From positions 194 through 64,193 of the forward strand of contig JAFNKG010000005.1 in NCBI GenBank assembly GCA_017883965.1: a stretch of DNA of 64,000 nucleotides. The letters are read 5' to 3'. Within the stretch, counting starts at the first letter, position 1. Each line of letters starts with the position of its first letter. The position numbers were made by a program, and so were the translations under genes. Positions 16,019-45,810 of this stretch are shown here, piece after piece. A model generated the notes under the pieces. It was not told the origin of the DNA. It worked only from the letters and a program-made list of their open reading frames with translations, and did no database searches. This DNA is from Candidatus Methanophagales archaeon. GTDB taxonomy: Archaea > Halobacteriota > Syntropharchaeia > Alkanophagales > Methanospirareceae.

Positions 16019-16312
16019 ATGATAGAGCTGGATGTATTCCTAAAAGACTACGTATTCCTCGCTATCGGGCTGTTAATCGCACTCACGATATTGTTGTGTT
16101 TATACAGAGCAGTGCTTGGACCAGGCGTGTTTAATCGCGTGACAGCGGTGAATGTAATAGGGACAAAAACAATCGTTCTCTTAGTTATTATAGGCTATAT
16201 ATTCGAAAGACCTCTGTTCTTTGACATCTCGCTTCTCTATGCAATGCTAAATTTCATTGCCACTTTAGTTTTCGCAAAATATTTAGAGAGGGGTGAGGTA
16301 TGCTTGAGATAA
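16019..16312 (+). CDS. mrpF: Mrp/Mnh antiporter subunit F-like protein (MbhB-like)
   Basis: 97 aa with 3 transmembrane helices. RAVLGPGVFNRVTAVNVIGT matches MnhF (LrGPt..DRvvAld). Confidence 0.7.
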   Translation: MIELDVFLKDYVFLAIGLLIALTILLCLYRAVLGPGVFNRVTAVNVIGTKTIVLLVIIGYIFERPLFFDISLLYAMLNFIATLVFAKYLERGEVCLR

Positions 16313-16623
16313 TCGTGATATTACTCCTAGCTGTCGGAATTTTCTTTATGTTCACCGGCGCAATTGGATTATTACGATTGCCTGACTTTTATACAAGACT
16401 GCATGCAACAGGGAAGTGCGACACGCTTGGAGAAGTCCTTATAATCTTTGGTTTGTTGTTATACCATTTATTCCATTACCCGGAAACACCTCTCGTACCT
16501 GTGAAGCTTCTATTTTTAATAATATTTATTTTTCTCGCCAATCCAACAGCGACACATGCGATAATGAAAGCGGCTTATAATACAGGTGTGAAGCCCTGGA
16601 AGGTGGGGGAAGAGAGAAGATGA
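16300..16623 (+). CDS. mrpG: Mrp/Mnh antiporter subunit G-like protein (MbhC-like)
   Basis: GAIGLLRLPDFYTRLHATGKCDTLG matches the MnhG signature (GalGllRfPDvytRlHAatK). Confidence 0.75.
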   Translation: MLEIIVILLLAVGIFFMFTGAIGLLRLPDFYTRLHATGKCDTLGEVLIIFGLLLYHLFHYPETPLVPVKLLFLIIFIFLANPTATHAIMKAAYNTGVKPWKVGEERR

Positions 16624-17126
16624 AAGGTAAAGGAGGAAAGGGATTTGGAATACTTGTAACGTTTTGTGCCATGTTTCTGTTCTGGCTCCTCTTATCTGGT
16701 TTTTTCGATGCTTTCCATCTCACAGCAGGTGTGATATGCAGTGCGATTGTGGCGTTGATTTCTCATGACCTGCTGGTAAAGGAAAAGGGCGATAAAATGC
16801 TTTTGAAGTCCTTTAAGTTCGTTATTTACCTCGGCTGGGAGTTGTGGCAGATAGTATTGGCGAACTTCGATGTCGCATATCGTGTTCTACATCCAAAGAT
16901 GCCGATAGACCCTCGTATAATAGAATTTGATACTTCCTTGAGAAGCGATTTTGCTCTCGTTACCTTAGCTAATTCCATCACCTTAACGCCCGGAACGATA
17001 ACTATATTGGTAGACCCAGAAAAAGGTACGTTCTGGGTGCATGCAATAGCAAAAAAACCCGCGGATGGGCTCTTAGTGGATAAGACGATGCAGAGGAAAG
17101 TGGCTAACGTGTATATGGAATGGTGA
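16620..17126 (+). CDS. mrpE: Mrp/Mnh antiporter subunit E-like protein (MbhA-like)
   Basis: 168 aa. The N-terminal transmembrane segment FLFWLLLSGFFDAFHLTAGVI resembles MnhE, and the gene is co-oriented in the operon. Confidence 0.6.
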   Translation: MKGKGGKGFGILVTFCAMFLFWLLLSGFFDAFHLTAGVICSAIVALISHDLLVKEKGDKMLLKSFKFVIYLGWELWQIVLANFDVAYRVLHPKMPIDPRIIEFDTSLRSDFALVTLANSITLTPGTITILVDPEKGTFWVHAIAKKPADGLLVDKTMQRKVANVYMEW

Positions 17127-17186
17127 TAAAAATGACAGTTTTTTATATTATATTTATAAACAACAGAAATAGGAGATAAATAAAAA

Positions 17187-17432
17187 ATGATATGGCAGCT
17201 TGACCTCATACTGCTGTTTTTAATTGTGGTTATCGCGATAGCTTCAATAACTGTGAGAGACCTTTTGAGTGCAATCATGTTATTGGGTGCATATAGTTTT
17301 CTGATGGCAATGGTCTGGGTAGAGATGCATTCGGTGGATGTGGGCTTTACAGAGGCTGCCGTCGGCGCCGGTGCAACCACCGCTTTCTTAATCGCTGCTT
17401 TATCCAGGACAGTGAGGTGGGAGAAGAAATGA
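17187..17432 (+). CDS. Small MrpB-N-terminal-like (DUF4040/MbhD-like) membrane subunit
   Basis: 81 aa with 3 transmembrane helices. Its position in the operon corresponds to MbhD/MbhE. Confidence 0.45.
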   Translation: MIWQLDLILLFLIVVIAIASITVRDLLSAIMLLGAYSFLMAMVWVEMHSVDVGFTEAAVGAGATTAFLIAALSRTVRWEKK

Positions 17433-17959
17433 AACTACTGCCGACAATGGGACTCATTTTTGTAATCCTTTTAGGCGGTCTTTTCATATACGTAGCGGAA
17501 GATATACCCGCATTTGGAGACCCGTACTCTCCTCCTAATAAGTATGTCAACTTGTCTATCAGTATTGATGCCGCTGAGTTAGAGGATAATTTGAACCAGG
17601 GTGTTATCCCTGCGAGTTTAATGGATAAAATTGAAGAGAGAGGGCTTCCACTACCTTCCAGGATTGAGAAGGTGGAGGAGGGATGGGACATGATAATTGA
17701 AAAGGGGGAGTTGCATTATCATGAGGAAGAGAGATATTACTTTGTCACTGAGGAAGGCGATGCGTTGTGGGTTTACCGGTATGCGCCTATCGTGAGATAC
17801 ATAGAGAAAGGTCACGAGGAGACAGAAGTGCCGAATATGGTAACCTATATTCTCGCGGATTACAGGGGTTACGATACGCTTGGTGAGACCACTGTCATAT
17901 TTACCGCTGGTGTGGCGGTTATATTATTATTGAGGAGGCGAGAGAAAAGACCTGAATAG
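17417..17959 (+). CDS. Membrane-anchored hypothetical subunit: N-terminal TM, soluble domain, C-terminal TM
   Basis: It overlaps the upstream gene by 16 bp and has no recognisable motif. Confidence 0.4.
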   Translation: MGEEMKLLPTMGLIFVILLGGLFIYVAEDIPAFGDPYSPPNKYVNLSISIDAAELEDNLNQGVIPASLMDKIEERGLPLPSRIEKVEEGWDMIIEKGELHYHEEERYYFVTEEGDALWVYRYAPIVRYIEKGHEETEVPNMVTYILADYRGYDTLGETTVIFTAGVAVILLLRRREKRPE

Positions 17960-18021
17960 ACAATGCGAATAGGTAATGAAGGTATGTCGGTCACATTATT
18001 GTTGAGGAGGCGAGGTAAGCT

Positions 18022-18516
18022 TTGAACCCGGAAAATAGTGAGATAGGAAAAGGCAGGGCGGGGGGTGGAGATGTCATAGTAGAGACAGTATCGAGACTGA
18101 TGGTACCTTTTATCCAGTTGTTTGCATTGTATGTGATAATACATGGAGCAGGCGGACCCGGGGGAGGATTTCAAGGAGGAGTTATATTCGCCGCTTCTTT
18201 TGTCTTACTCGTCATCGCTTTTGGGATTGTTGATGCAGGCGACAGATTCCCGGAGGCTGCAAATATCGCTTTCATCAGTCTTGGAGTGTATATCTTTGCT
18301 GGAGTGGGACTCCTATGCATAATCCTGAGTTTAGGAGCTGCGCAGTACCTCAACTATGGTTTCATTCCATTAACAACCCATTTCGAGGAGAATAGGGCTT
18401 TGGGAATAGACCTCGTAGAGGTAGGAATAGGAATAACAGTAATGGCAGTAATCACTTCTATATTTTTTAACCTCGCGTGGAAAAGAGAAAGTGAAGAAGG
18501 AGGTAGGGAGGAATAG
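18022..18516 (+). CDS. mrpB: Mrp/Mnh antiporter subunit B-like protein (MbhF-like)
   Basis: HGAGGPGGGFQGGVIFAASF matches the MnhB signature HGhltPGGGFqGG. Confidence 0.75.
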   Translation: MNPENSEIGKGRAGGGDVIVETVSRLMVPFIQLFALYVIIHGAGGPGGGFQGGVIFAASFVLLVIAFGIVDAGDRFPEAANIAFISLGVYIFAGVGLLCIILSLGAAQYLNYGFIPLTTHFEENRALGIDLVEVGIGITVMAVITSIFFNLAWKRESEEGGREE

Positions 18517-18518
18517 AA

Positions 18519-18899
18519 ATGATGGAATGGCTAATCGAGGAAATATTTGCAAAATATAATTACTGGGTTTCCATAATTCTCATGCTCATCGGTTTCTATG
18601 CGATGATAGCAAAGGATAATCTGATAAAGAAGGTCATCGGATTGACCATATTCCAAACCGCTATATTCCTGTTCTTCATATCGCTGGGTGATATGGTAGG
18701 AGGAACCGAGCCAATCTATATAAAAGGATACGAAGGCTTATACGTGAATCCGTTACCTCACGTGCTTATCCTGACGGCAATAGTGGTGGCAGTATCCACA
18801 ACCGCAGTTGCCCTCGCTCTGGTAATAAGGATGTATGAGGAATACGGGACGATAGAGGAAGAGGAGATAATAGAGAAGGAGAGAGAATTGGGGCTGTAG
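18519..18899 (+). CDS. mrpC: Mrp/Mnh antiporter subunit C-like protein (NuoK/MbhG-like)
   Basis: 126 aa with 3 transmembrane helices. VIGLTIFQTAIFLFFISLG is NuoK/MnhC-like. Confidence 0.7.
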   Translation: MMEWLIEEIFAKYNYWVSIILMLIGFYAMIAKDNLIKKVIGLTIFQTAIFLFFISLGDMVGGTEPIYIKGYEGLYVNPLPHVLILTAIVVAVSTTAVALALVIRMYEEYGTIEEEEIIEKERELGL

Positions 18900-18973
18900 C
18901 ATCACGGCGCACATTGAAAGCTCAAATCCCCACTGATTTTTGAGCAGATAAGCGCTGAGAGGGGCTAAAAAGC

Positions 18974-18987
18974 GTGTCACCGGTGTC
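18974..18987 (+). promoter_or_regulatory. GTGTCAC-cg-GTGTC motif upstream of the first large antiporter subunit
   Basis: The sequence is gtgtcaccggtgtc. It shares its heptamer with the sites at 31968, 35487 and 43008. Confidence 0.3.
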
Positions 18988-19106
18988 TCGTCAGAGATAA
19001 ATGGGGAGTTTTATATCTAATGGTTTTTTATTCTATAAATGTAGAACTTTTTAGTCCTCTCGGGTGAGAATAGAATGAATAATAAAAAGGAGGAAAGTAA
19101 GGTCTG

Positions 19107-20639
19107 ATGCTGAGTATAGTTGAACAATTTCCTATACTTGTGGTTGCAATATCCTTGCTTTCCGCTTTCACTATTTTGATTGTTGGATGGCTAAACAAGA
19201 AATCTTGCTGTTTCATTTCCATCGCAACCATTCTCGTTCAGCTCGTCATGGCTATTTTTATCCTGGATCATGTCCTGACCAAAGGAACCATACATTACTG
19301 GCTTGGTGGCTGGAAGCCCCCCTGGGGCATAGAATATCTCGTGGATGCCTTGAATGCATACGTATTGGTCATCGTTCTGTTTTTAGGCTTGATATGCGCA
19401 CTACATTCAAAGAGTAGCATAGAACACGAACTGCCTCATAAAAGTGACACTTTTTATACCATTTACCAACTCTTTATAGCTGGATTATGCGGTGTAACCG
19501 TGACCGGCGATATATTTAACATGTATGTGTTCCTCGAGATATTGTCTATATCTGCGTATGCATTAGTAGCTTCGAAAGGAGGAATTGCACTGAGGGCAGG
19601 TTTTACTTACCTCGTAATGGGTTCTATCGGTGCTTGCTTCTTTTTGTTGGGGGTAGGTTTTCTGTATGTGATAACGGGTTCGCTGAACATACATGACCTC
19701 TCGCTTTTATTGCCCCCTTTATACGGAAATAGAGTGGTTCAAGCGGCTTTTATTTTCTTCATCGTGGGATTGGGTATAAAGATGGCTATCTTTCCACTTC
19801 ATACGTGGTTGCCAGATGCACACCCAGCTGCACCCAGTCCAATCTCGGCTATGCTGAGTGGAATCATGATAATGGTTGGACTTTATGCGTTAATTAGAGT
19901 GCTGTTTACACTCTTCCCCTCTTACTACAATTATGGACCCATCTTGCTTATCCTGGGTCTTCTGTCAATGACAGTGGCAAACCTCTTTGCCTTCTTCCAA
20001 AAGGACTTAAAAAGACTTCTCGCTTACTCAAGCATTGTCAATATGGGTATTATAGCCACAGGTGTAGGAGTTGCCGCTTATATTCTCTCAACTGTATCAT
20101 CACCATCAGAGGCTCCTCCAGAGGAGGCTTCTTTAGCCATGGCAGGTGCCTTACTCCATGTTTTGAGTCATGGTGTAGCCAAAGCGATGGCTTTCTTAGG
20201 TTCTGGTAACATTCATTCCAGTATCAATACCAGGGAGCTTGCGAAAATGGGAGGCGTTGGAAGGGACATGCCCTTAACAGGTTACTCGATGTCGGTAGGC
20301 TTGCTCTCATTATTAGGCTTGCCTCCCTTAATTGGTTTTTGGAGTAAATTTCTAATAATAATGTCTGTGGCAATGGCAATTCGATCTGTTGGTGGAGTGG
20401 TAATAATTATGACTTTTTTTCTTCTCTTATTTAATGTTATATATGCTGCTTCATATTATCTCAGAGTGACAAAGGTTTTAATGATGGAAAGCGGGGCTGT
20501 TAGAACCCACGAGGCACCCTTTCCAATGGTATTCTCGGTTGTTGTTTTTGCGCTCTTCTGTATAATAGGGGGTTTATTCCCCATTCCACTCATTAGATTA
20601 GCCGTAAGAGCGTCACTTATAGTTTTAGGAGGTGGATGA
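19107..20639 (+). CDS. NuoN/MrpD-family proton-pumping antiporter-like subunit (set A, D1)
   Basis: 510 aa, about 14 TM helices. Contains WLPDAHPAAPSPISAMLSG and LAYSSIVNMG. It is a paralog of 35555..37063. Confidence 0.8.
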   Translation: MLSIVEQFPILVVAISLLSAFTILIVGWLNKKSCCFISIATILVQLVMAIFILDHVLTKGTIHYWLGGWKPPWGIEYLVDALNAYVLVIVLFLGLICALHSKSSIEHELPHKSDTFYTIYQLFIAGLCGVTVTGDIFNMYVFLEILSISAYALVASKGGIALRAGFTYLVMGSIGACFFLLGVGFLYVITGSLNIHDLSLLLPPLYGNRVVQAAFIFFIVGLGIKMAIFPLHTWLPDAHPAAPSPISAMLSGIMIMVGLYALIRVLFTLFPSYYNYGPILLILGLLSMTVANLFAFFQKDLKRLLAYSSIVNMGIIATGVGVAAYILSTVSSPSEAPPEEASLAMAGALLHVLSHGVAKAMAFLGSGNIHSSINTRELAKMGGVGRDMPLTGYSMSVGLLSLLGLPPLIGFWSKFLIIMSVAMAIRSVGGVVIIMTFFLLLFNVIYAASYYLRVTKVLMMESGAVRTHEAPFPMVFSVVVFALFCIIGGLFPIPLIRLAVRASLIVLGGG

Positions 20640-22200
20640 GTTGGTGATAGTGGAATCCATAAGACCGTTGTTAGCAATTTCATGCCCATTTATTTGTGCT
20701 TTTCTCATATTACTATTTAGAAAGCGACCGAACATAAGAGAGAGCTGCACGATGTTCGCCAGCATATTGCAGTTTTTGATTATCTTTTCTATGGCACCGA
20801 TTATTGTAGAAGGAAATGTAATCGAATGCCCTCTCTTTACTATATTTACTGGACTTGATTTTATATTCAAAGTAGATGCTTTTGGTCTTATTTTCGCTAT
20901 TACTTCTTCCTCCCTGTGGATTCTGGTATCGTCCTACTCCATAGGATATATGAGGTCGCTGCGCGAACACGCCCAAACGCGATACTACGCCTGTTTCGCT
21001 TTAGCCATTTTCGGTGCGGTAGGCATAGCAATGTCCAAGAACCTGATCACAATGTACTTCTTTTATGAGGCATTAACGATAGCAACCTATCCCTTAGTGG
21101 CTCACGATGGCTTACCCGAATGGGGTCACAAGGCAGAGGAGTCTGACAAGGCACGGGAAGCACGATTTGCGGGTCGTAAATACCTAGCTTACTTGCTTAC
21201 TTCTGGTTGGTGTTTCTTTGTTGCGATAGTGTTAACGTTTTACCTTACCGGGACGACTGATTTTGAGAACGGAGGGATTTTAACGGTTGCTTCAGCATCA
21301 CGCGTGACCTTGATGCTGCTATTTGCGCTATTCATGTTGGGCTCCATGAAAGCTGCATGGATGCCTTTTCACTCATGGTTGCCAACGGCAATGGCTGCGC
21401 CAACGCCGGTGAGTGCGCTTTTGCATGCCGTAGCAGTGGTAAAGGCGGGGGTGTTTGTAGTCGTCAGAATAGTCTGTTACATATATGGTGTGGATTTGAT
21501 GAGTGCGCTTGGACTGGGGATAATACTCGCTTGTCTGGCATCTTTCACGATGATAGTTGCCAATTTATTTGCCATTGGAGAAGACAACTTGAAAAGAATG
21601 CTTGCATATTCTACTATAAACCAACTATCTTTTATAATCTTAGGAGTGGCATTATTAAGTCCTATGGGAATAACAGGAGCAATGATTCACATTCCTTTCC
21701 ATGGGTTCATGAAGATAACCCTCTTTCTGTGCGCTGGTGCGATTATGGTGGTAACAGGAAAGAGGAACATAAGTGAGATGGCGGGCATAGGACGAATAAT
21801 GCCGGTAACAATGATGGCATTTACCATAGCCGCATTTGGAATGTGCGGAATTCCACCGATATCAGGTTTTATAACTAAATGGTATATTTGCTTGGGTTCG
21901 ATGCAAGCAGGTGTGGTAGCTTTCTTATTTGTTGCCGTGATATCTTCTTTGCAGGATGTTGTTTATTACTTTCGGGTAATAAGAACTGCATTCTTTGGAA
22001 AACCAGCGGAAACAAATGGAGGAAGCGGAGAAGAAAAGACAAGAAATAAAGAAACAGAACATCCTGTATATCTTTTCATGCTCATTCCATTAGCGATAAC
22101 TGCTATTTTCTCCATCATGTTTTGCTTATTCCCACATGCATTTTATATACTCGACCTTGCGCAAATGGCGGTTAGAGATCTTTTTGGAGGTGTGGTATGA
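20632..22200 (+). CDS. NuoL/M/MrpA/D-family antiporter-like subunit (set A, D2)
   Basis: 522 aa. Contains WLPTAMAAPTPVSALLHAVAVVKAGVFVVVR and KRMLAYSTINQLSFI. Confidence 0.8.
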   Translation: MDELVIVESIRPLLAISCPFICAFLILLFRKRPNIRESCTMFASILQFLIIFSMAPIIVEGNVIECPLFTIFTGLDFIFKVDAFGLIFAITSSSLWILVSSYSIGYMRSLREHAQTRYYACFALAIFGAVGIAMSKNLITMYFFYEALTIATYPLVAHDGLPEWGHKAEESDKAREARFAGRKYLAYLLTSGWCFFVAIVLTFYLTGTTDFENGGILTVASASRVTLMLLFALFMLGSMKAAWMPFHSWLPTAMAAPTPVSALLHAVAVVKAGVFVVVRIVCYIYGVDLMSALGLGIILACLASFTMIVANLFAIGEDNLKRMLAYSTINQLSFIILGVALLSPMGITGAMIHIPFHGFMKITLFLCAGAIMVVTGKRNISEMAGIGRIMPVTMMAFTIAAFGMCGIPPISGFITKWYICLGSMQAGVVAFLFVAVISSLQDVVYYFRVIRTAFFGKPAETNGGSGEEKTRNKETEHPVYLFMLIPLAITAIFSIMFCLFPHAFYILDLAQMAVRDLFGGVV

Positions 22201-22433
22201 TGAAAATAACGTGGAATGTTTTATTCAAGATATACTACATTCTCATGGCTGTGAGTGTCTTGATAGGTTTATTGATGCTTCATTTCCATATGCTTCATTA
22301 TCACTTCCCGTTTCAATGGATACCGGCATTTTTTGCCATTTTTGGATTCTTTGGTTGCGCTCTTTTGATTCTTATAGCCAAAGGAATGGGTCACTGGCTT
22401 ATGAAGGGGGAGGATTATTATGAGAAACGCTAG
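22197..22433 (+). CDS. Small membrane protein with 2 TM helices between antiporter subunits
   Basis: 78 aa. A similarly small, unrelated 2-TM membrane ORF (43767..43994) lies just before the paralogous large subunit in set B. Confidence 0.4.
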   Translation: MMKITWNVLFKIYYILMAVSVLIGLLMLHFHMLHYHFPFQWIPAFFAIFGFFGCALLILIAKGMGHWLMKGEDYYEKR

Positions 22434-22448
22434 GAGGAGGCAGGTAAA

Positions 22449-24299
22449 ATGATTGAATGGATACATCCAGGGATTGTAATTTTGCTTGGCGCTTTCCTGA
22501 TACCAGTTATTAGAAACGAAAAAGTGAAGAAGGCGTACTTCCTTCTGCTCCCCATTATAGGGCTTATAATCCTAATTCTAACATCAATGGGAGTTTTTGG
22601 AATTATTCCTCCTTACCCTGACGCGCTCCATAAATGGCGTATCCCGTTTTTGCATTATACGCTCGAATTAGGAAGGATAGATAAATTGAGCATGATTTTC
22701 GCATACGTATACGTGATTGCTGCGTTTTGCATGAATATATTTGCACTCCGCGTGAAGAAGGATTGGGAGCATGTAGCAGCAATGATCTATGTTGGGAGTT
22801 CGCTTGGAGCAGTTTTCGCTCGTGACCTTTTTACTCTGTATTTCTTTTTGGAGATAATGTCTTTCTCAGCCACATTCCTCGTTTGGTTCCGAGGGACGAA
22901 GACAGCAATGGGTGCTGGATTTAGATATCTTTTTTGGCACCTTTTCAGTGGTGTATGCGTGTTGGCAGGTGCTATCATACATGTGCAAACCACTGGGTCA
23001 ATTGAATTTGTTCATTTCCCCTGGGGATTGGGCTGGGATTATTTTGGCTATTACCTCATACTCCTTGGATTTCTAATAAATTCTGCTTGTACTCCATTCC
23101 ATTCATGGTTGTCTGATGCCTATTCTGAGGCATCTGTTACTGGCGCTATATATATGACCGCATATACTACAAAGACTGGGATATATTGTTTGATAAGAGG
23201 TTTCTCTGGTGTGGAGATTGTTATGTTTATGGGGGCGATAAGTGCCGTGTTTGCACTTTTCCTGGCGGTGCTTGAGAACGATGGAAGAAGACTCTGCTCC
23301 TATCACATCATCTCTCAGCTTGGATACATGGTATGTGGAGTAGGAATAGGAACTCACATGGCAGTAAACGGTGCGGCTTCTCATGCTCTCTGTCATATTA
23401 TCTACAATGCGCTGCTTTACATGGGTGCAAGTACTGTCTTGTCAGTAGCAGGAACGAGCAAATTCAGTGAAACGGGCGGTCTCTACAAATATATGCCCCT
23501 CTCTTGGGCACTTTACATGGTTGGTGGTTTTTCCATTTCCGGATTCCCTCTATTCAATGGATTTGTGAGCAAGTGCATGACTATAGAGGCTGCAGAATTG
23601 ATACATCAACCAATTGTATATTTACTACTTGAAGGAGCTACGGTAGGAACTTTCCTACATACTGGTCTGAAACTTCCCTGGAATATATGGTTTCAAGGGA
23701 GAAAGGAGCCACCAGCAGATATAAAGGCAAAACTAAAAGAGTCGCGTATAAATACGCCTATAAACATGTTAGTTGGCATGGGCATCTTAGCGTTTCTGTG
23801 CATTTTTATTGGTGTATATCCTTATATACTTTATGGCATGCTTCCTCATCCAGTTGAGTTCATTCCTTTCACGCCTACTCGTGTATTTTCAATACTGCAA
23901 CTCTTTCTATTCACATTTCCAGCATTTTGGTTATTAAGAGCATTGGTTCGTGGCATGCCAACATATACAGTTGATTCAGATTGGTTCGGTAGAATACTTG
24001 GTAGTGCGCTTATCTTGTTCTGCGAGAGACAGTTAATGGCATTTGGAGCTTTCATTGACCGTAATGTAATGAGAATGGCAGTTCATTTTCGCTTTCTCAT
24101 ACCAAAGACTCAGCCAGTTGTTGAGGATCCACTGGATAAAGCGTTTCACGAGAGACTTCCTGCTCTTCTAAACTTCGAAAAGACCCATGACAAAATAAAG
24201 CAATTTAAGCTCAGGGAATTGTCGTATAATTTGGTGTATATAATTTTTGCTATGCTACTCCTTCTCCTATATATACTATTTATGGTGGTGATGAAATGA
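22449..24299 (+). CDS. NuoM/MrpD-family antiporter-like subunit with a C-terminal extension (set A, M1)
   Basis: 616 aa. Contains WLSDAYSEASVTGAIYM and LCSYHIISQLGYM. The C-terminal tail ...DPLDKAFHERLP... ends in a transmembrane segment. It is a paralog of 43987..45810. Confidence 0.8.
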   Translation: MIEWIHPGIVILLGAFLIPVIRNEKVKKAYFLLLPIIGLIILILTSMGVFGIIPPYPDALHKWRIPFLHYTLELGRIDKLSMIFAYVYVIAAFCMNIFALRVKKDWEHVAAMIYVGSSLGAVFARDLFTLYFFLEIMSFSATFLVWFRGTKTAMGAGFRYLFWHLFSGVCVLAGAIIHVQTTGSIEFVHFPWGLGWDYFGYYLILLGFLINSACTPFHSWLSDAYSEASVTGAIYMTAYTTKTGIYCLIRGFSGVEIVMFMGAISAVFALFLAVLENDGRRLCSYHIISQLGYMVCGVGIGTHMAVNGAASHALCHIIYNALLYMGASTVLSVAGTSKFSETGGLYKYMPLSWALYMVGGFSISGFPLFNGFVSKCMTIEAAELIHQPIVYLLLEGATVGTFLHTGLKLPWNIWFQGRKEPPADIKAKLKESRINTPINMLVGMGILAFLCIFIGVYPYILYGMLPHPVEFIPFTPTRVFSILQLFLFTFPAFWLLRALVRGMPTYTVDSDWFGRILGSALILFCERQLMAFGAFIDRNVMRMAVHFRFLIPKTQPVVEDPLDKAFHERLPALLNFEKTHDKIKQFKLRELSYNLVYIIFAMLLLLLYILFMVVMK

Positions 24300-25795: not shown

Positions 25796-25837
25796 GTACA
25801 TCAACAAATAACGAAATGTTTATAAATCGTTCGCTTA

Positions 25838-26126
25838 TATAAAAAGAGAGGAAAAGGAGATGGGAAGTAAATTCAGTAGTGCGGTGAAATGTTTTATTAA
25901 ATGTCCAGTGTGCACAATTAGACTTATGCGGAGTTTTGGTTCGTATGATCAGGGGACAGAGGAATTAATAAAGAAAAGTTGTCCTGAAGTAGACGTGGAG
26001 AGCTTAGGTTATTACTTCGGTATTTTCCAGGCTATTATCTTCGTTGTTCTTTGTGTGATGGCGTATCTATTTTTTTACGCGCTTAAAGTCGTTCTCTTTT
26101 ACCGGGAAATGCTTTTCCCTCCATGA
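25838..26126 (+). repeat. Left copy of an approximately 290 bp direct repeat flanking the HEAT/IS66 block
   Basis: ggagatgggaagtaaattca...aaatgttttattaaatgtccagtg recurs at 28481..28770. Confidence 0.6.
25860..26126 (+). CDS. Small tail-anchored Cys-rich protein (CF.K.PV...R.M / CPEV family)
   Basis: 88 aa. Contains KCFIKCPVCTIRLM...SCPEVDVESLG followed by one TM helix. It belongs to the same family as 43097..43378 and 43432..43704 and the C-terminal tail of 43987..45810. Confidence 0.5.
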   Translation: MGSKFSSAVKCFIKCPVCTIRLMRSFGSYDQGTEELIKKSCPEVDVESLGYYFGIFQAIIFVVLCVMAYLFFYALKVVLFYREMLFPP

Positions 26127-35502: not shown

Positions 35503-35554
35503 ATAGAGGGAAAAAGAATAACTTTATATATTTTGTTTCCTATAAACAGTTCTG

Positions 35555-39153: not shown

Positions 39154-39241
39154 ACTTCTTTATATTATTCTTCAGCAAATGGTCACGAAAGAAATGATTA
39201 GGAACGTGGTGGATGCAACAAGAGATGGGGTGGTGATGTAA

Positions 39242-40753
39242 ATGATACCTTATATCCTTTTTCAAATAACAGCAGTACCAATTATAGCCTCCGTATTCAT
39301 ATTTTTAACCAGACCAAGATTAGGTGAGAAAGCAGGCTGGATAGTGGGTATTACCCTCTTATACACTACTGCGCTTCTTTGTATGGTTGGCATCAGAGTT
39401 TATCAGGGCACAATAATTTATGAGGAATATCCATTAGCCCCGGCGGTGAATTTTAATCTTTTAGCCGACGGTTTGAGTATACCTGTTGCATTGATAATGA
39501 ATCTGTGCTGTGTAGTCCTGGCATTTTACTCAATACACTATGTAGGACACAGAATAGAGGTAATATATGGAGAAGTGGATAAAGAGACATGGCTTATGTA
39601 TTACACGAGGTTTTTCTTTTTATTTCCCTTCTTTTCCACGGGTTTCATGGGTATTGCCTTTTCTACAAACCTTATAGCGATGTATTTCTTCATGGAACTA
39701 TTGACTATTATTCCCCTTTATTTCATAATGGCTCAATTTGGTTATTCCGATTTTATAGAGCGTTATAAAGTTGCCCTAATGTGTCTTTTCTGGGGAATTG
39801 CTGGGGCGACCCTCTTCCTGATTGGTATCCTTTTAGCATATACCCAGATAGATAGCTTTGAAATCTCGGAGTTGCGCACTCTTTCGGGAAATCCAGTAAT
39901 TACCTGGATTATCTTATGCATGCTTCTTGGTTTATTTTCTAAGCTGGCAATATTTCCACTTCATGTTTGGATGCCCTGGGTTCACGCAGAGCATCCCACA
40001 TGCATAGCTGGATTGCTTGCGGTTTATGCGAATATAGCAGCTTATGTGATGGTTAGGGTTCTCATCTTGCCACTTTATAATGATTTCAAAGTTTTTGGCA
40101 TACCTATTATGGTGTTGGCTCTGGTAACCATGGTATATGGCTCTCTTCTTGCTATGGCTCAAAATGACGTGAAACGATTCGCTGCTTGCTCAACTATAAG
40201 CCAGATATCATATTCTGTCCTTGGACTGAGCGCACTCACAATCTGGAGTATTGAAGGGGGGCTCTTTTTCTTTTTGAGTCACATCATGGGTAAAGCAATT
40301 CTCTTCTCAACCGCTGGTATATTAGTCTATGTGACAGGGATCAGGGATATGAGAGAGATGGGTGGACTCGCATCCAGGATGCCAATAACTGCTACGCTCT
40401 GGATAATGGGCGCTATGATGCTCTCAGGCCTTCCGCCTTTTAGCACCTTCGCAGCAGAATGGATAATGTTCACAGGCATCTTCATGTTTGGAGCACATGG
40501 TCCTTCTATTGCACTGATAGTTGCAATTCTGGGTGTTTCTGCAGTTGGATTAACGATTGCTTACACATTCTGGTCCGCGAAGAGAATATTTTTTGGTCCA
40601 TTGAAACCTAATCTGTCAAATGATGAAATCAGGGACCCACCATTAACGATGTGTGTTCCACTTCTACTTTTAGCTGTTGTATCAATCATCCTTGGCCTGT
40701 ATCCTAAACCCATAATGGATCTTTTTCATTTTGTGATAGGAGGAGTAATATGA
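39242..40753 (+). CDS. NuoN/MrpD-family antiporter-like subunit (set B, N1')
   Basis: 503 aa and a paralog of 24296..25795. VWMPWVHAEHPTCIAGLLA is identical between the two. Confidence 0.8.
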   Translation: MIPYILFQITAVPIIASVFIFLTRPRLGEKAGWIVGITLLYTTALLCMVGIRVYQGTIIYEEYPLAPAVNFNLLADGLSIPVALIMNLCCVVLAFYSIHYVGHRIEVIYGEVDKETWLMYYTRFFFLFPFFSTGFMGIAFSTNLIAMYFFMELLTIIPLYFIMAQFGYSDFIERYKVALMCLFWGIAGATLFLIGILLAYTQIDSFEISELRTLSGNPVITWIILCMLLGLFSKLAIFPLHVWMPWVHAEHPTCIAGLLAVYANIAAYVMVRVLILPLYNDFKVFGIPIMVLALVTMVYGSLLAMAQNDVKRFAACSTISQISYSVLGLSALTIWSIEGGLFFFLSHIMGKAILFSTAGILVYVTGIRDMREMGGLASRMPITATLWIMGAMMLSGLPPFSTFAAEWIMFTGIFMFGAHGPSIALIVAILGVSAVGLTIAYTFWSAKRIFFGPLKPNLSNDEIRDPPLTMCVPLLLLAVVSIILGLYPKPIMDLFHFVIGGVI

Positions 40754-41013
40754 GTGCTTGAAAAACTAAGACTTGACCGACAATTACGCTTGACACAGAC
40801 TGGTTCTACCGGATAACAGGATGTATTAAAACGCTTTTTCTCCAATCAAATTCATCGCTTTGTTATCCATTTAATTGCCCGCTGTTCTCGTCACTCGAAA
40901 CTTCCCCTTCTTCCATTGACAACGACCTTTCTTTGAAAAGAAAGCGTGACCAAAGAAATATGTTTTTAATAACAAAAAACCTTTTTATATATATAAAAAC
41001 AAACTTTTTGATT

Positions 41014-42402
41014 ATGATGGAAGCGAAAATGCCCCCGGAGTTAGCTGAGGCATTCTCCTCACCGAGAGGCTATTCACTGCTGATAAAGGGAGCGCCGGGG
41101 ACAGGGAAGACGATACTCGCACTTGAGCTAATCGGCGAGTTAGGCGAAGTTAATGCCGTTTACCTTTCAGCCCGGGTCTCCACTCACGCCCTTTACGACC
41201 AGCTCCCCTGGCTGGACGAATGTGTCAGCCCGTTGAACCTGATAGATGCCACAAAGTTCTACGTATCTTCGGATATAGTTCCAGGAGTGCAATCTTTCCC
41301 TGATATTCTTTACACAAGGTTAGGGAAAATAAAAAAACCCGCTACCGTTGTAATTGATAGCTGGGAAGCGATAACATCTCAGATGGAGAGGGAAAAGACA
41401 GAAGCGCTGGAAGCGGCGATTACCGAATTAGCAAGACATGCCGAAATGAAATTGATACTCGTGTCAGAGAATCTTGGTATATCATCGCTTGATTACATGG
41501 TGGATGGGATAGTAACGCTAAAGCGTTTAACGCTGAATTACAGAAGGGCGAGGGAATTAGAGATAGAGAAATTAAGGGGTATCCGAATAGACCAGCCAAA
41601 ATATGCATTCTCCTTAGAAGGAGGCAGATTTCATTATTTCAGACCTTTCGAGCGGAGGAAAATAGAGAAGCCGAGAAGAGTAGAGATTGTGCAAAATAGC
41701 GAAGCATACTTGTCTACCGGGGTCCGGGACTTAGATAAAATTCTGAGCGGGGGATTCAGAAAGGGAAGTTTTAATATTATAGAAGCCGGAGATGATATGT
41801 CTGTTTTGGGTTACCAATCCATTATCGCTCACATGATTATAAACAGCATACAGCAAGGGAATAACTGTGTATGTATTCCATGTTGCGGCTGGAATGAGCG
41901 GAGATTGAGAAGGGGGATATTGCCTTTTGTAAATGAAGAAGACTATAATAAGTTTTTCACTGTATTCGAGATAGGTTCAGAGGAGAAGGAAGATGAGGGA
42001 GAGAATGTGAGAATATTGAAAGGAGAGTCGATGAAGACGGACTTTCCCAAATTCCGGGATTTCATTTCTGATTTGGAGCCGCAAGTAATGGTAATTATCG
42101 GAGCGGATACGCTGGAGTATCCATATCAGTTGAAAGAGAAAGGTAAAGTAGGTGAAATGGTGGGGATGTTATCCCGGTTGATGATAGATGTGAGGGATGC
42201 AGATAATGTAGGTGTATTTGGAGTGACTCCGGGGCTTGTGCTGAGCAGTGAGCTGATTCACCTCTCGTCAGTGCACCTGAAGTTGACCGTGCTCGATAGA
42301 AGTGTTATCCTTTACTGCAATCGCCCTGATACCAAAGTACATTGTCTGGAGAATGTTGTTACTGATGATAGTCTTAGAATAGAACTCACTGCTATTGTAT
42401 AG
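41014..42402 (+). CDS. KaiC/RecA-superfamily two-domain ATPase, paralog of 28817..30208
   Basis: Contains GYSLLIKGAPGTGKTILALELI. It shares the stretch FERRKIEKPRRVE with the first copy, and the DNA there is identical over about 35 nt. A TATA-like ttttatatatataaaa lies just upstream. The start was trimmed to the internal ATG. Confidence 0.65.
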   Translation: MMEAKMPPELAEAFSSPRGYSLLIKGAPGTGKTILALELIGELGEVNAVYLSARVSTHALYDQLPWLDECVSPLNLIDATKFYVSSDIVPGVQSFPDILYTRLGKIKKPATVVIDSWEAITSQMEREKTEALEAAITELARHAEMKLILVSENLGISSLDYMVDGIVTLKRLTLNYRRARELEIEKLRGIRIDQPKYAFSLEGGRFHYFRPFERRKIEKPRRVEIVQNSEAYLSTGVRDLDKILSGGFRKGSFNIIEAGDDMSVLGYQSIIAHMIINSIQQGNNCVCIPCCGWNERRLRRGILPFVNEEDYNKFFTVFEIGSEEKEDEGENVRILKGESMKTDFPKFRDFISDLEPQVMVIIGADTLEYPYQLKEKGKVGEMVGMLSRLMIDVRDADNVGVFGVTPGLVLSSELIHLSSVHLKLTVLDRSVILYCNRPDTKVHCLENVVTDDSLRIELTAIV

Positions 42403-43007
42403 GGAGGAAGAAATATGGAGATAGACGTGCAGGTAATGGTAGGCAGCAACATAATTATCACCTTTGGCAGGGTAGACGTGGAGTTGACGAAAGAACAGGC
42501 GGAGAAACTAAAAGTACTTCTTGTAGATGCCCTTGAGAGAAGTGAGCGTAATCTTCTCCTCAGAGGGGTCGATAAAGGCAAGTAAAGTCCTTTCCGTGAA
42601 GAGGAAGAAGTCATCGCCACATTTCTCTCTTATCTCTTCTATACTCTTATTATCGAAATAAATCCGCTTTCCTCTTTCATCCCCTGCTCTTTGAACAGAA
42701 GCAATAAGCTCGATAATATTCTTCTCTTTCCTTTCATTTTTCTCTTCCCCTTCGGGCTCTTCATCAACCATTTTATTATTTTCATTTATTGCTTCTTTTT
42801 CGTTAATAAAAAGCTTTTCTTTTTGATTTGAAATCTTTGGTATGAAAATACTTTATATTTTCATGCTTATGGGTGTCCCGGCGGGTCATGAAAGTTTCCT
42901 TTTGTTTTATCTCACTGGATATTAAAGGACTGAGAACCTGCATTCTGCATCTTCATTGAAATTTACCGAAAACTTTATAAAGCACTGGTGCCATATAAGT
43001 AATTGGA

Positions 43008-43021
43008 GACACAAGTGTCAC
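43008..43021 (+). promoter_or_regulatory. GACACA-a-GTGTCAC inverted heptamer upstream of the small-protein genes
   Basis: The sequence is gacacaagtgtcac. Confidence 0.3.
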
Positions 43022-43096
43022 GAAAGGCACAAAGAAGGAATGCCTCCGAAAAGGGATAAGGTAAAAGTGGTGTCCCGAAAGGGATAAAAAAAGAAG

Positions 43097-43378
43097 GTGG
43101 TGGGAATGGGAATAAAAAAAATAGTTGGCACGTGGCGATGCTTTGGCAAGGACCCGGTGCTCGCAACAAGGATAATGATAGATGTGGCGGGTGCGAAGTT
43201 ACTGGGGACATTTAATCCTGTATATAAGAAATACGAGCAGGATTTGGAAGTGACAAAGAGAAGATGCCACGAAGAAGCGGTCCAAAACCTGGCGATTGGG
43301 ACAGTGGCATTGATGTCGCTTGTCTTCGGGACTCTCTACCTGTTTATTTACCTGACGTATAGGGTGCTGTGGATTTAA
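43097..43378 (+). CDS. Small tail-anchored protein (CF.K.PV..TRIM family), copy 1
   Basis: 93 aa. Contains WRCFGKDPVLATRIMIDVAGAKLLGTFNPVYKKYEQDLEV followed by one TM helix. The gene and its leader are tandemly duplicated. Confidence 0.5.
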   Translation: MVGMGIKKIVGTWRCFGKDPVLATRIMIDVAGAKLLGTFNPVYKKYEQDLEVTKRRCHEEAVQNLAIGTVALMSLVFGTLYLFIYLTYRVLWI

Positions 43379-43431
43379 TTGAAGCTGTGGCGATAATTCC
43401 CGAAAGGGGATAAAATAGGAGGTGAAAGGGA

Positions 43432-43704
43432 ATGGAAATAAAAAAAATTGTCGGCACGTGGCGATGCTTTGGCAAGGACCCGGTGCTCGCAACAAGGATA
43501 ATGATAGATGTGGCAAGTGCGAAGTTACTGGGGACATTTAATCCTGTATATAAGAAATACGAGCAGGATTTGGAAGTGTGTAAGAGAAATTGCCCTGAGG
43601 TATCATGTCATAGTCTGGCTATCGGCACGGGGGTCCTGCTGGCAGTTCTTTTCGGCGTTTTTTGCGCAGTAGCGTATGCGATTCAGGTATTGGTCATTCC
43701 ATAA
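43432..43704 (+). CDS. Small tail-anchored protein (same family), copy 2, with a CPEV motif
   Basis: 90 aa. The N-terminal 45 aa are identical to those of copy 1, then NCPEVSCHSLAIG followed by a TM helix. Confidence 0.5.
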   Translation: MEIKKIVGTWRCFGKDPVLATRIMIDVASAKLLGTFNPVYKKYEQDLEVCKRNCPEVSCHSLAIGTGVLLAVLFGVFCAVAYAIQVLVIP

Positions 43705-43766
43705 ACGCCTGATTCAAGGCAGTAAAGAAGAAACAGATTTTGTCATCGCATAAAGATTAGGATACC

Positions 43767-43994
43767 ATGTTAAAAATGAGGGATGGAATGGAACTTGGAA
43801 AGGAGTTGAAAGGACTTATTATAGCTGGTATATGTGGTATAGGCGTAGCATTAGCTACATCTGCCTTATTTGTGGAGCATCATGAACATTTTTTTGGTTT
43901 CTACGCCCTATACGGGGCGATAGGAGTGGGATTCTTTCTATTAACCACGAAGATATTGTCCGCAATACAAAAGGAGGGGAGTCAAGATGATTGA
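43767..43994 (+). CDS. Small membrane protein with 2 TM helices
   Basis: 75 aa. It overlaps the downstream antiporter gene by 8 bp, in the same relative position as 22197..22433. Confidence 0.4.
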   Translation: MLKMRDGMELGKELKGLIIAGICGIGVALATSALFVEHHEHFFGFYALYGAIGVGFFLLTTKILSAIQKEGSQDD

Positions 43995-45810
43995 AATAAG
44001 TAGCATACCCAATATACCTCCTGTTCTCATTTACTTCGCAGGAGCTGCATTAATACCCCTGCTCGGAAAGGGTAAAGTGCGGAAGATTTATCTCATCATA
44101 TTAGCCGCGCTTGGATTGATATGTGTAACGTTATTAAGACCGCAGCCACCAAGTTGGGTATTCCCTATTCTACCGGGATTTGAACTGACACTCTTGCATG
44201 TAGATAGATTGAGCCTTATAATGGGCTACATATTTGTCATAGCGGGAGGTGCTGCGATATTATACTCGGTTAGCACTATAAAGGAGGCGGGACAATATGT
44301 GTGTGCGTTGCTATACCTGGGAAGCGCTTTAGGAGCGGTATTCGCGGGGGACTTCTTCACCCTGTATATCTTCTGGGAGATAATGGCGTTCTCTTCTCTT
44401 GGCTTGATATGGTATAGCCAAACGGAGAGGGCGACGAACGCAGGGATGCGATACATTTTGTTTCACCTGTTTGGTGGTTGTGCCCTTCTTGGCGGGATAA
44501 TAATTCATTATATGAATACCGGTTCTATCGCAGTAGGACCAGTAGAGCTTGGTATAGGATATTTTCTTTTGCTTATGGGGATAGGAGTAAATACTGCATT
44601 TATACCACTTCATACCTGGCTGCCGGATTCATATCCGAAGGCAACGATAGCTGGCACCATTTTTTTGTCCATATTCACGACAAAAATGGGTGTATACGTG
44701 CTTGCGAGGACCTTTTCGGGTGTAGAAGCGGTAGCATACATGGGCGGAGTGATGTGCCTCTATGGCGTTATATTTGCGATATTACAGAATGATGTAAGAA
44801 AACTTCTTTCGTATCACATTGTGAGTCAGTTGGGCTACATGGTAGCAGCGGTTGGAATAGGCACTTCAATAGCGATAAACGGAGGAATTGCACATCTTTT
44901 TAACAACCTGTTGTTCAAGACAACCCTGTTCATGTGTATGGGTGCAGTAATATACAGGACAGGGAAAAACAACCTCACAGAACTTGGTGGACTGGCGAAG
45001 AAGATGCCCGTGACGATGATAACATGTGTGATTGCGGCTCTTTCCATCTCCGGTGTTGCAGGCTTTAATGGATACATAAGTAAAGGAATGGTAATACACG
45101 CTGTGGAATTGGAGGGAATGCGTGTCCTCGCACTCGCTTTGATGCTGGGTTCAGTAGGCACACTTATTTCATTCTTAAAACTCACGTATTTCACGTTTTT
45201 CAGTAAAAATGAGAATATAGAAGCGAAGGAGGCGCCGTTACCCATGCTTGTTGCGATGAGCGTTACCGCTTTCCTTTGCGTTGCTATCGGGTTATACCCA
45301 AAGTTGCTTTACGGAATATTGCCTTACAAAGAGGTGGCGTTACATTATCAGGCATACGCACTCGGACACGCTTTAGGAACAGTAGAGTTGGTGCTGATGA
45401 CTGTTTTTATGTTCTTCTCGCTGGGGTTCTTCGTACCTCATGAGAAGATAACACGTGACATGGATTATATATACAGAAAGGTAGGGAGAGGGTTTATATG
45501 GTTCTGTGAGAAACCGTTAGTGAGTTTTGCGAATTCCATTGACGAGGGAATAATGAGAATAGCTTCTTCTTCTGTATGGTTCAGCAGGAATCCAGTAGCG
45601 GCATCAAGAATAATGGTAGATATGATGGGTGCAGTGGTGTTGAGACCTTTCAATCCAGTATATATGCGCTATGAACGAGACTTAGAAGAGGTGAAGAGAA
45701 TGTATCCTGGGGAGCCGGTGCAAAGCCTGGCTATCGGTAGTGGAGTGCTGCTGGTACTCGTCTTCTTCGCTTTCTATTTGGCGATATATTTGATGTATGG
45801 GCTAATGTAA
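43987..45810 (+). CDS. NuoM/MrpD-family antiporter-like subunit fused at its C-terminus to the small-protein domain (set B, M1')
   Basis: 607 aa. Contains WLPDSYPKATIAGTIFL and LLSYHIVSQLGYM. The last approximately 75 aa (NPVAASRIMVDMMGAVVLRPFNPVYMRYERDLEEV...PVQSLAIGSGVLL-TM) match the proteins at 43097 and 43432. Confidence 0.8.
   Translation: MIEISSIPNIPPVLIYFAGAALIPLLGKGKVRKIYLIILAALGLICVTLLRPQPPSWVFPILPGFELTLLHVDRLSLIMGYIFVIAGGAAILYSVSTIKEAGQYVCALLYLGSALGAVFAGDFFTLYIFWEIMAFSSLGLIWYSQTERATNAGMRYILFHLFGGCALLGGIIIHYMNTGSIAVGPVELGIGYFLLLMGIGVNTAFIPLHTWLPDSYPKATIAGTIFLSIFTTKMGVYVLARTFSGVEAVAYMGGVMCLYGVIFAILQNDVRKLLSYHIVSQLGYMVAAVGIGTSIAINGGIAHLFNNLLFKTTLFMCMGAVIYRTGKNNLTELGGLAKKMPVTMITCVIAALSISGVAGFNGYISKGMVIHAVELEGMRVLALALMLGSVGTLISFLKLTYFTFFSKNENIEAKEAPLPMLVAMSVTAFLCVAIGLYPKLLYGILPYKEVALHYQAYALGHALGTVELVLMTVFMFFSLGFFVPHEKITRDMDYIYRKVGRGFIWFCEKPLVSFANSIDEGIMRIASSSVWFSRNPVAASRIMVDMMGAVVLRPFNPVYMRYERDLEEVKRMYPGEPVQSLAIGSGVLLVLVFFAFYLAIYLMYGLM

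Follow-up and report, generated by a model that had tools for sequence, protein, structure and literature searches.

A complete Mrp-type antiporter operon and an orphan set of antiporter large subunits lie on either side of an frhB-hdrA pair in an ANME-1 archaeon

Results

Gene content of the two antiporter sets

The DNA analyzed here (the window) is a 64,000-nucleotide (nt) stretch from a Candidatus Methanophagales archaeon (assembly GCA_017883965.1, contig JAFNKG010000005.1, positions 194 to 64,193), a member of the anaerobic methanotrophic archaea, group 1 (ANME-1), the group to which its closest named homologs belong. It contains two clusters of genes for antiporter subunits, set A and set B, with an frhB-hdrA pair between them (Table 1). 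By Pfam and NCBIfam matches, set A (16019-25795, + strand) is a complete Mrp-type operon for seven small subunits and four Proton_antipo_M proteins, in which homologs of all seven Mrp subunits, MrpA to MrpG, are encoded together as in CPA3 antiporters, with MrpA split. Set B encodes four further Proton_antipo_M proteins, giving eight in the window in total. The seven small-subunit genes of set A are the sole copies in the window; a tblastn search of the window found no second copy, and set B does not by itself have the seven subunits of an Mrp antiporter. Set A is a complete, stand-alone operon of a widespread four-module type, of which we found no description in the literature searched, and set B is an orphan large-subunit set of a second operon type.

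A preliminary description of the window had named the genes of both sets and had read the small-subunit layout as Mbh-like rather than as classical mrpABCDEFG. Each gene that it named is present (Pfam), and the layout was correctly recognized, as shown by the Pfam matches to MbhD and MbhE and by the gene order, which is F-G-E-D-E-B-C here and E-F-G-D-E-B-C in bacterial relatives. Its list for set A was sound but had overlooked two small genes, a two-transmembrane (2-TM) open reading frame (ORF) ahead of A_L3 and the tail-anchored gene A_88. An A_88-type gene comes after L4 in the ANME-1 loci that cover this junction, and A_88 has a ratio of nonsynonymous to synonymous substitution rates (dN/dS) of ∼0.3. 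The gap between mrpC and A_L1 is 208 bp. The ORF at 15425-15994 (+) was considered as the first gene of the operon and rejected; it is kept in relatives but is antisense to a real minus-strand gene for a TYW3 methyltransferase. Archaeal MbhE-like proteins (17417-17959 in the window; 153-267 amino acids (aa) in relatives) have a TM helix at the N terminus and a hydrophilic insertion of ∼100 aa, and most of their bacterial homologs, which are 91-138 aa long, are without both.

Three of the large subunits of set B were described as close paralogs of those of set A, which holds for A_L1 and B_L1 (56% identity) and for A_L4 and B_L3 (67%) but less well for A_L3 and B_L4 (only 36%). The absence of small subunits from set B was likewise borne out. 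All the large-subunit genes assigned to set B (35555-45810) are present, but they are not contiguous, as ATPase 2, two tail-anchored ORFs (orf93 and orf90), and a 2-TM ORF separate B_L3 from B_L4. Its lack of small subunits, the apparent frameshift in the neighboring gene p102, and the toxin-antitoxin genes and rearrangements nearby could be taken to mean that set B is a decaying, functionless remnant of a duplicated operon. However, the ORFs of set B are intact, their dN/dS values (0.06-0.33, and 0.09-0.33 for B_L1 to B_L3) are similar to those of set A, the class-invariant functional residues are kept, and orphan large-subunit sets are retained, together with their promoter element, across many ANME-1 and GoM-Arc1 genomes. 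The set B genes are under purifying selection; the intact ORFs and the dN/dS values led us to reject a pseudogene array, and the already disfavored idea of a remnant is scarcely credible. In p102, the A_88-like C-terminal 17 residues are encoded in another frame at 28712-28762, and a pseudogene or a sequencing error is possible.

The products of orf93 and orf90 share 46-49% identity with B_L4 over its residues 521-607, and A_88 and p102 belong, more distantly, to their family. Because of this similarity, these four mini-proteins look like free-standing copies of a NuoL-type tail. In an AlphaFold2 (AF2) model of B_L4, the core of 14 TM helices is predicted with confidence; the fold is closest to that of MrpA, and NuoL and MbsH′ are also among the best matches. 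The C terminus of this model, a TM helix, long helices, and a further TM helix, has a predicted local distance difference test (pLDDT) score of <50 and is consistent with, although not proof of, a lateral helix.

Table 1. Genes and sequence elements of the antiporter region (positions are those of the window)
Feature	Position	Strand	Remarks
MrpF	16019-16312	+	Pfam match above curated cutoff
MrpG	16300-16623	+	Pfam match above curated cutoff
MrpE	16620-17126	+	Pfam match above curated cutoff
MbhD-like	17187-17432	+	Pfam match above curated cutoff; with MbhE-like, split C-terminal part of MrpA
MbhE-like, 180 aa	17417-17959	+	Pfam match above curated cutoff
MrpB (MnhB)	18022-18516	+	Pfam match above curated cutoff
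MrpC/NuoK-like	18519-18899	+	Pfam match above curated cutoff
Operator-like palindrome GTGTCACCGGTGTCTC, then TTTTATAT ∼20 nt on	18974-18989		mrpC-A_L1 gap; same element upstream of A_L1 in seven ANME-1 loci
A_L1, 510 aa, MbhH/MbsH/MrpD-like antiporter subunit	19107-20639	+	TM5 Glu, TM7 Lys, and TM12 Lys present
A_L2, 522 aa, MrpA-N/NuoL-like, without C-terminal extension	20632-22200	+	TM8 His...Lys signature
2-TM small ORF, 78 aa, ahead of L3-type subunit	22197-22433	+	Homolog between L2 and L3 in every 4L operon examined
A_L3, 616 aa, MbsH′-like	22449-24299	+	C-terminal extension (TM, long helix, TM); TM7 Lys to Asn; passes NF009310
A_L4, 499 aa, NuoM-like	24296-25795	+	TM8 Asn, TM12 Lys
A_88, 88 aa, tail-anchored single-TM protein	25860-26126	+	Distant homolog of C-terminal tail of L3-type subunits
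p102, second tail-anchored gene	28503-28811	+	66% identical to A_88; apparently frameshifted near 3′ end
KaiC/GvpD-like ATPase 1	28781-30208	+	Pfam GvpD_P-loop and KaiC
memb328, 8-TM protein	30837-31823	-	Divergent neighbor of orphan large-subunit sets
Operator-like repeats (GTGACATAAGTGACAC, GTGACAC), then TTTTATATA	31968-32017		∼210 nt upstream of frhB
frhB	32229-33263	+	FrhB_FdhB N- and C-terminal domains (Pfam); F420-interacting subunit
hdrA, 657 aa, flavin/4Fe-4S HdrA	33260-35233	+	Pfam
Two T6 tracts	35285-35303	+	50-70 nt past hdrA stop codon; archaeal terminator-like
Perfect palindrome GTGTCACCAGTGACAC	35487-35502		Upstream of B_L1; conserved in relatives without frhB-hdrA
TATA box TTTATATA	35523-35530		25 nt before B_L1 ATG; conserved in relatives without frhB-hdrA
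B_L1	35555-37063	+	Proton_antipo_M; first gene of 3L large-subunit trio
B_L2, 696 aa, NuoL/NdhF-like	37063-39153	+	Proton_antipo_M and Proton_antipo_N; above NuoL TIGR01974 cutoff; TM5 Glu to Lys
B_L3	39242-40753	+	Proton_antipo_M; TM12 Glu
KaiC/GvpD-like ATPase 2	40933-42402	+	58% identical to ATPase 1
Operator-like palindrome GAGACACAAGTGTCAC	43006-43021		Upstream of orf93/orf90/2-TM/B_L4 unit; similar sites before L3 units in L092
orf93, tail-anchored	43097-43378	+	Homologous to B_L4 tail
orf90, tail-anchored	43432-43704	+	Homologous to B_L4 tail
2-TM ORF	43776-43994	+	Overlaps B_L4
B_L4, 607 aa, L3-type	43987-45810	+	Proton_antipo_M

Related operons in bacteria and archaea

With an L4-type alignment as the anchor, 78 genome loci (cited by L numbers) were gathered and annotated with the proteins of the window. 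Two types of operon recur in these loci. The 4L type, that of set A, has the seven small subunits and L1-L2-[2TM]-L3-L4 (12 bacterial and 9 archaeal loci), and the 3L type has the seven small subunits and L1-L2′-L4, in which L2′ is a NuoL-like protein of 675-700 aa (21 bacterial and 5 archaeal loci). At least 47 related loci, 33 of them bacterial and 14 archaeal, contain self-contained operons of these types, always with the small-subunit block, and the hosts belong to groups such as Desulfobacterales, Nitrospirota, Spirochaetota, Marinacidobacterales, Bathyarchaeia, Methanosarcinales, GoM-Arc1, and ANME-1. Examples that have precomputed Pfam annotation lie on a contig from Desulfobacterales and on a 100-kb contig that is unassigned. 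The part of set B at 35555-40753 is a 3L trio without the small subunits that 3L operons carry elsewhere. The TM12 residue of L4 is Glu when the gene comes after L2′ (30 of 32) and Lys when it comes after L3 (31 of 31), and B_L3 has the Glu and A_L4 the Lys. On these signatures, 3L and 4L are two old and distinct operon types. Because the signatures are distinct and taxonomically widespread, a recent duplication within the genome was rejected as the origin of set B.

The 106 ORFs that immediately flank the related operons include recurrent families (TYW3, Usp, KaiC/GvpD, PAS histidine kinases, and H+-pyrophosphatase), and NuoB/C/D/H/I, NiFe hydrogenase, formate dehydrogenase, and FrhB are absent among the families seen in at least 2 of these ORFs. 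The self-contained architectures and the absence of a recurrent redox family from the flanks support one of the two possibilities raised in the preliminary description, that of a stand-alone multi-antiporter. The clusters could instead be membrane arms for an Fqo-, Mbh-, or Mbs-like redox module encoded elsewhere in the genome, of which one contig was covered here, and both the small-subunit layout and the similarities of L1 and L3 point to Mbh/MBS. Against this, known Mbh, Mbs, and Fpo operons keep their coupling subunits beside the membrane subunits, and such a module flanks none of the ∼47 related operons. In addition, Fqo is conserved in all ANME, including ANME-1, as a separate complex encoded elsewhere (PMC9012536). 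We regard a distant redox module as very unlikely. Next to bacterial 3L and 4L operons (in flanks such as L004 18808-21512), genes for Rnf, universal stress proteins (6 of 106 flanking ORFs), and H+-pyrophosphatases (3 of 106) occur repeatedly, which fits a role in ion homeostasis.

A_L3 (22449-24299) is 70% identical to the L3 of a Desulfobacterales metagenome-assembled genome (L004 8157-10004), with which it pairs in a neighbor-joining tree. Its identity to the L3 proteins of close relatives in ANME-1 is only ∼56%; the neighboring genes of these relatives are 79-90% identical to those of the window. The large subunits of this Desulfobacterales operon are 63-72% identical to those of ANME-1. 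These comparisons suggest that inter-domain transfer, with gene replacement inside the operon, has taken place between ANME-1 and lineages of sulfate reducers.

The archaeal supercluster

In ANME-1 and GoM-Arc1, a common order is found: a set with small subunits, a tail-anchored gene, one to four KaiC-like ATPases, often a toxin-antitoxin pair, a divergent memb328 gene, and a second set without small subunits. memb328 is directly divergent from an L1-type gene in 17 junctions from these archaea. The first and second sets occur as 4L+3L, 4L+4L, 3L+4L, and 3L+3L combinations, and some first sets are larger, with six large subunits in L008 and five in L016. In the window, the ∼6.4 kb from set A to frhB contains HEAT-repeat and pilin-like genes, the apparently frameshifted copy of the 88-aa gene (p102), the KaiC-like ATPase, a nucleotidyltransferase (NTase)/HEPN pair, and the 8-TM gene, several of them on the minus strand. 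Locus L045 has the order of the window (KaiC, NTase, HEPN, memb328/B_L1 B_L2 B_L3) minus frhB-hdrA. PAS-domain histidine kinases, of which the window has none, lie inside the superclusters of ANME-1 relatives (L025 14335-16473, L044 15902-17713, and L045 18455-20680), near extra memb328 genes and L3 units.

The memb328 protein is an internal duplication of 2 × 4 TM segments, in which residues 1-165 resemble residues 166-328. Its family has 223 members in 5.8 billion clusters, all hypothetical, and the named matches are all from uncultured methane-seep-type archaea, mostly ANME-1. It belongs to no Pfam family (the only match, to EXPERA, is sub-threshold), and its AF2 model (pLDDT 76.5) has no match in the PDB at E ≤ 0.001. 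In relatives, memb328 occurs in two to three tandem copies.

The position of memb328 beside the first gene of the orphan sets in these 17 junctions, the restriction of its family to the same lineages as those sets, the tail-anchored genes that end the sets, and the resemblance of the mini-proteins to the C-terminal tail of L3 subunits are all compatible with set B forming a complex of its own, in which memb328, the tail-anchored proteins, and the 2-TM mini-proteins replace MrpB/C/E/F/G. Yet memb328 has no detectable similarity to Mrp small subunits or known folds, the Na+ path requires the small-subunit region in solved Mrp and Mbh structures (PMC7419157), and all of the 26 3L loci found elsewhere have seven small subunits. 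An independent set B complex is thus unlikely.

Large-subunit classes and channel residues

Large-subunit classes were assigned by the best match to a solved structure. L1 is most similar to MbhH (6cfw_H, 235 bits) and MbsH, ahead of MrpD (168). L2 is ambiguous (MbhH 145, NuoL 134, and MrpA 120) and has the TM8 His...Lys signature of the MrpA/NuoL type. The best PDB match of L3 is MbsH′ (6u8y_X, 105 bits), and L3 passes the NCBIfam model NF009310, "Na+/H+ antiporter subunit D." L4 matches MbhH (134), MrpA (131), and NuoM (∼115). L2′ (B_L2) matches NdhF (306) and NuoL (260) far above MrpA (186).

TM5 Glu, TM7 Lys, and TM12 Lys or Glu are retained in L1, L2, and L4. Invariant substitutions were found in three classes: TM5 Glu to Lys in L2′ (36 of 36, confirmed in alignments to NdhF and Escherichia coli NuoL), TM7 Lys to Asn in L3 (40 of 40), and TM8 Lys to Asn in L4 (84 of 84). 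The other canonical TM5, TM7, TM8, and TM12 residues are conserved within each class.

Putative operators, promoters, and terminators

The pattern GTGWCAC-N2-GTGWCAC, with up to two mismatches, was used in a search for operators; TATA boxes and oligo-T tracts were read by eye from the sequence. The window contains four sites for this pattern (0.15 expected), and 409 kb of sequence from archaeal relatives contain 14 site clusters (3.2 expected), all of them at most 300 nt upstream of L1-type genes. No enrichment was found in bacterial loci. Upstream of B_L1, the A-rich stretch between the palindrome GTGTCACCAGTGACAC and the TATA box TTTATATA belongs to the element shared with the B_L1 genes of relatives. 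With operator sites ahead of each set, the module of small subunits and the individual large-subunit sets seem to be transcribed as separate units under common regulation. The operator-like element ahead of frhB makes co-regulation with the large-subunit sets possible and is no evidence of physical association. This element is absent upstream of orthologous frhB clusters.

Relation of frhB-hdrA to the antiporter genes

As described earlier, frhB and hdrA lie between the two sets and are translationally coupled, with an overlap in ATGA; hdrA ends 322 bp before B_L1, which is on the same strand. The pair has the composition of a soluble cluster, FrhB_FdhB domains adjacent to a flavin/4Fe-4S HdrA. 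HdrB/HdrC (CCG-domain) partners were not found in the scanned ORFs of the window and may be encoded elsewhere in the genome. Pfam scans of the other window ORFs that were examined, together with precomputed annotations, revealed no NuoB/C/D/H/I or NiFe-hydrogenase domains, in agreement with the preliminary description. The window takes up nearly all of its contig, which at 64,269 nt is 269 nt longer. Upstream DNA gave the same result, as a second assembly of the sample reaches 8.2 kb upstream of the window and contains housekeeping genes there. The NuoB/C/D/H/I-type (MbhJ-N) module that accompanies the membrane subunits of Mbh, Mbs, and complex I-like systems was found neither in the window nor among the families that recur beside related operons. 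As for Fpo/Fqo, no FpoB/C/D/H/I homologs were found in the window, the FrhB-family protein is paired with HdrA instead, and B_L2 scores 329 bits against the FpoL model, for which the cutoff is 1050.

FrhB paralogs clustered with HdrA have been described for ANME-1 (PMC9012536), and the pair in the window resembles them. The orthologs of the window FrhB (84-89% identity) sit in hdrA-frhB-hdrA clusters without antiporter genes (L086-L090); unlike these, the pair in the window is without the upstream hdrA paralog and lies behind an antiporter-type operator, and nucleotide homology to the orthologous clusters starts exactly at the frhB start codon. FrhB is encoded in none of the 78 related loci and HdrA-like ORFs in only two, both bacterial. 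Among the 17 memb328/L1 junctions, frhB-hdrA stands in between only in this contig. These comparisons show that the position of frhB-hdrA is lineage-specific and point to a local rearrangement or insertion, and for this reason its adjacency to set B is not evidence of a new respiratory complex.

The preliminary description had raised the possibility of an energy-converting complex fed by FrhB-HdrA. In such a complex, FrhB-HdrA would dock on the antiporter-like subunits, and F420H2/heterodisulfide redox chemistry would drive ion translocation, making the pair a new input module for a complex I-like pump. The close spacing of the same-strand genes, the operator-like element that frhB has in common with the large-subunit sets, and the resemblance of L1 to MbhH/MbsH of redox-driven complexes are in keeping with this idea. 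It is not supported, however: the adjacency is unique to this contig among the 17 equivalent junctions, the orthologs lie in antiporter-free clusters, and oligo-T tracts and a separate conserved promoter stand between hdrA and B_L1. Moreover, no TM segment is predicted in FrhB or HdrA, and no NuoH/MbhM-, NuoB-, or NuoD-like coupling subunit is present. To our knowledge, such coupling subunits are used by all known members of the superfamily. The FrhB-HdrA-driven pump was already disfavored and is highly improbable.

A proposed modular Mrp-type antiporter

We consider it likely that this region of an ANME-1 genome encodes an Mrp-type (CPA3, "group 3" layout) system for cation/proton antiport that is modular and has been expanded, and not a redox-driven complex. 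If the solved Mrp structures are a guide, H+ would pass through the large subunits and Na+ through the end formed by the small subunits, as has been proposed for Mrp (PMC7419157). Most probably, set B would assemble with the single small-subunit module of set A, providing alternative or additional proton modules. Each set would be expressed from its own promoter under the common palindromic operator, and the KaiC/GvpD-like ATPases between the sets are probably regulators. By exchanging Na+ and H+, the system would convert the proton gradient made by Fqo to the Na+ gradient used by reverse-running Mtr. frhB-hdrA would be a soluble F420/heterodisulfide-type module that moved, in this lineage only, into the region from which the promoters of the 8-TM gene and B_L1 diverge; it may now share a regulator with the antiporter sets, yet would stay outside the membrane complex.

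Several observations weigh against this interpretation. We infer the ion specificity and direction of both operon types by analogy, as we do the use of the set A small subunits by set B; a second small-subunit set could be encoded elsewhere in the genome, of which one contig was covered, and complete 3L operons are present in some ANME-1 genomes (L040 and L056). The operator common to frhB and the large-subunit sets hints at a functional connection, which we have taken as regulatory only. The class-invariant substitutions in TM5, TM7, and TM8 could mean altered function. Finally, because L1 and B_L2 are closer to MbhH/MbsH and NuoL/NdhF than to MrpD/MrpA, the large subunits do not fall cleanly within the classical MrpA and MrpD clades, so that the ordinary Mrp assignment weighed in the preliminary description has no clean fit among the solved-structure matches, even though whole operons of these types stand alone.

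Mtr dissipates a Na+ gradient in reverse methanogenesis (PMC5244752), and most ANME-1 are without Rnf (PMC9012536). The regeneration of the Na+ gradient in ANME-1 is barely discussed, and neither Mrp nor antiporters are mentioned in the main comparative-genomic study of how ANME conserve energy (PMC9012536). The use of this gradient by Mtr and the lack of Rnf make the conserved, apparently regulated Mrp supercluster an obvious candidate for regenerating it. With the tempting but unsupported idea of an FrhB-HdrA-driven pump removed, interest remains in the way in which Mrp has been expanded in ANME-1, as regulated modules, and in its unusual invariant residues. For work on complex I and Mrp, the orphan sets, the mini-proteins that resemble NuoL-type tails, and the invariant loss of "essential" residues (TM5 Glu, replaced by Lys in the NuoL-like subunit, and TM7 Lys, replaced by Asn in L3) may serve as natural experiments on the chaining and coupling of antiporter modules.

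A more far-reaching proposal, which we offer tentatively and hold to be doubtful, is that ANME-1 and related alkane oxidizers combine one small-subunit (Na+) module with interchangeable or additive 3L, 4L, and single-L3 sets under their own operator-controlled promoters. In this proposal, KaiC-like ATPases would choose the set, "lateral-helix plus anchor" mini-proteins would aid assembly, and frhB-hdrA would have been wired into the regulon here. If true, such a modular Mrp machine would let the cell adjust the H+/Na+ stoichiometry in a life close to the thermodynamic limit.

Comparison with known systems

The system resembles the Mrp (Mnh/Pha/Sha) CPA3 antiporters of Anoxybacillus flavithermus (6Z16), Bacillus pseudofirmus (7QRU), and Dietzia (7D3U) in having seven-subunit homologs and no redox module, in keeping much of the TM5 Glu/TM7 Lys/TM12 Lys pattern in antiporter-like subunits, and in the fold of the B_L4 model, which is closest to MrpA; NCBI names the L3-type proteins "Na(+)/H(+) antiporter subunit D." It differs from them in that MrpA is split into three genes and that the antiporter-like subunits number four in set A and three in the set B type instead of two, and in having an extra 2-TM subunit, class-invariant substitutions of some canonical residues, and orphan large-subunit sets, as well as in the nearness of L1 to MbhH and of B_L2 to NuoL/NdhF. 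The nearest category in the literature is that of the "group 3" mrp clusters, examples of which are mrpCD1D2EFGAB of cyanobacteria and mrpFGBCDDAE of Microbacterium (Ito et al. 2017, PMC5703873). Like the present operons, these are irregular in order, have duplicated MrpD-like genes, and stand alone, but they keep an intact MrpA, and none is described with orphan large-subunit sets or KaiC-like ATPases.

The membrane arms of Pyrococcus furiosus MBH (6CFW) and MBS (6U8Y) share the layout of MrpE/F/G, MbhD, MbhE, MrpB, MrpC, and an antiporter subunit. The exact Mbh order E-F-G is seen in related bacterial operons, and L1 is most similar to MbhH/MbsH and L3 to MbsH′; however, a module of the MbhI-N or NuoB/C/D/H/I type was neither found in the window nor seen to recur next to related operons. 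A proposed physiological analog is MrpABCDEFG of Methanosarcina acetivorans, in which Na+/H+ exchange balances ion gradients in a methane-metabolizing archaeon (PMC5703873), although that operon is a classical group 1 operon of seven genes with two large subunits.

Assembly around B_L4 and further features

Between 27063 and 43682, the window and the second assembly of this sample do not differ; they part at 43682, within a tandem repeat formed by tail-anchored genes (43073-43704 in the window), the copies of which are 92-93% identical over 190 nt. Beyond this point, the other assembly (L003 16621-17477) has a third tail-anchored gene and a 2-TM ORF, followed by what is apparently one more L3-type gene. 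Because the divergence at 43682 falls inside this repeat, the link of set B to B_L4 crosses an assembly-ambiguous repeat, and L3-type units may be collapsed or under-represented in the window. ANME-1 Hel0 has three further L3-type units downstream of its KaiC2 ortholog and then an L3-type gene followed by fumarase; as this order of an L3-type gene and fumarase is kept in Hel0, the link to B_L4 is plausible. The ortholog of ATPase 2 in ANME-1 Hel0 is 84% identical and has the same position. A 56-aa ORF (MEIDVQVMVGSNIIITFGRVD...) directly after ATPase 2 (42415-42585), with a near-identical ORF in the same position in ANME-1 Hel0 (L092 3463-3633), may encode a small partner of this ATPase.

Rfam and tRNA scans found no RNA genes in the window. 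The window is rich in defense and toxin-antitoxin genes (3035-4584, 9860-12269, 12437-13214, 30227-30574, and 60035-60849), which include AbiEi/AbiEii, RadC together with an ATPase/TOPRIM nuclease of the OLD family, and NTase/HEPN pairs, three in number, of which one is in the supercluster.

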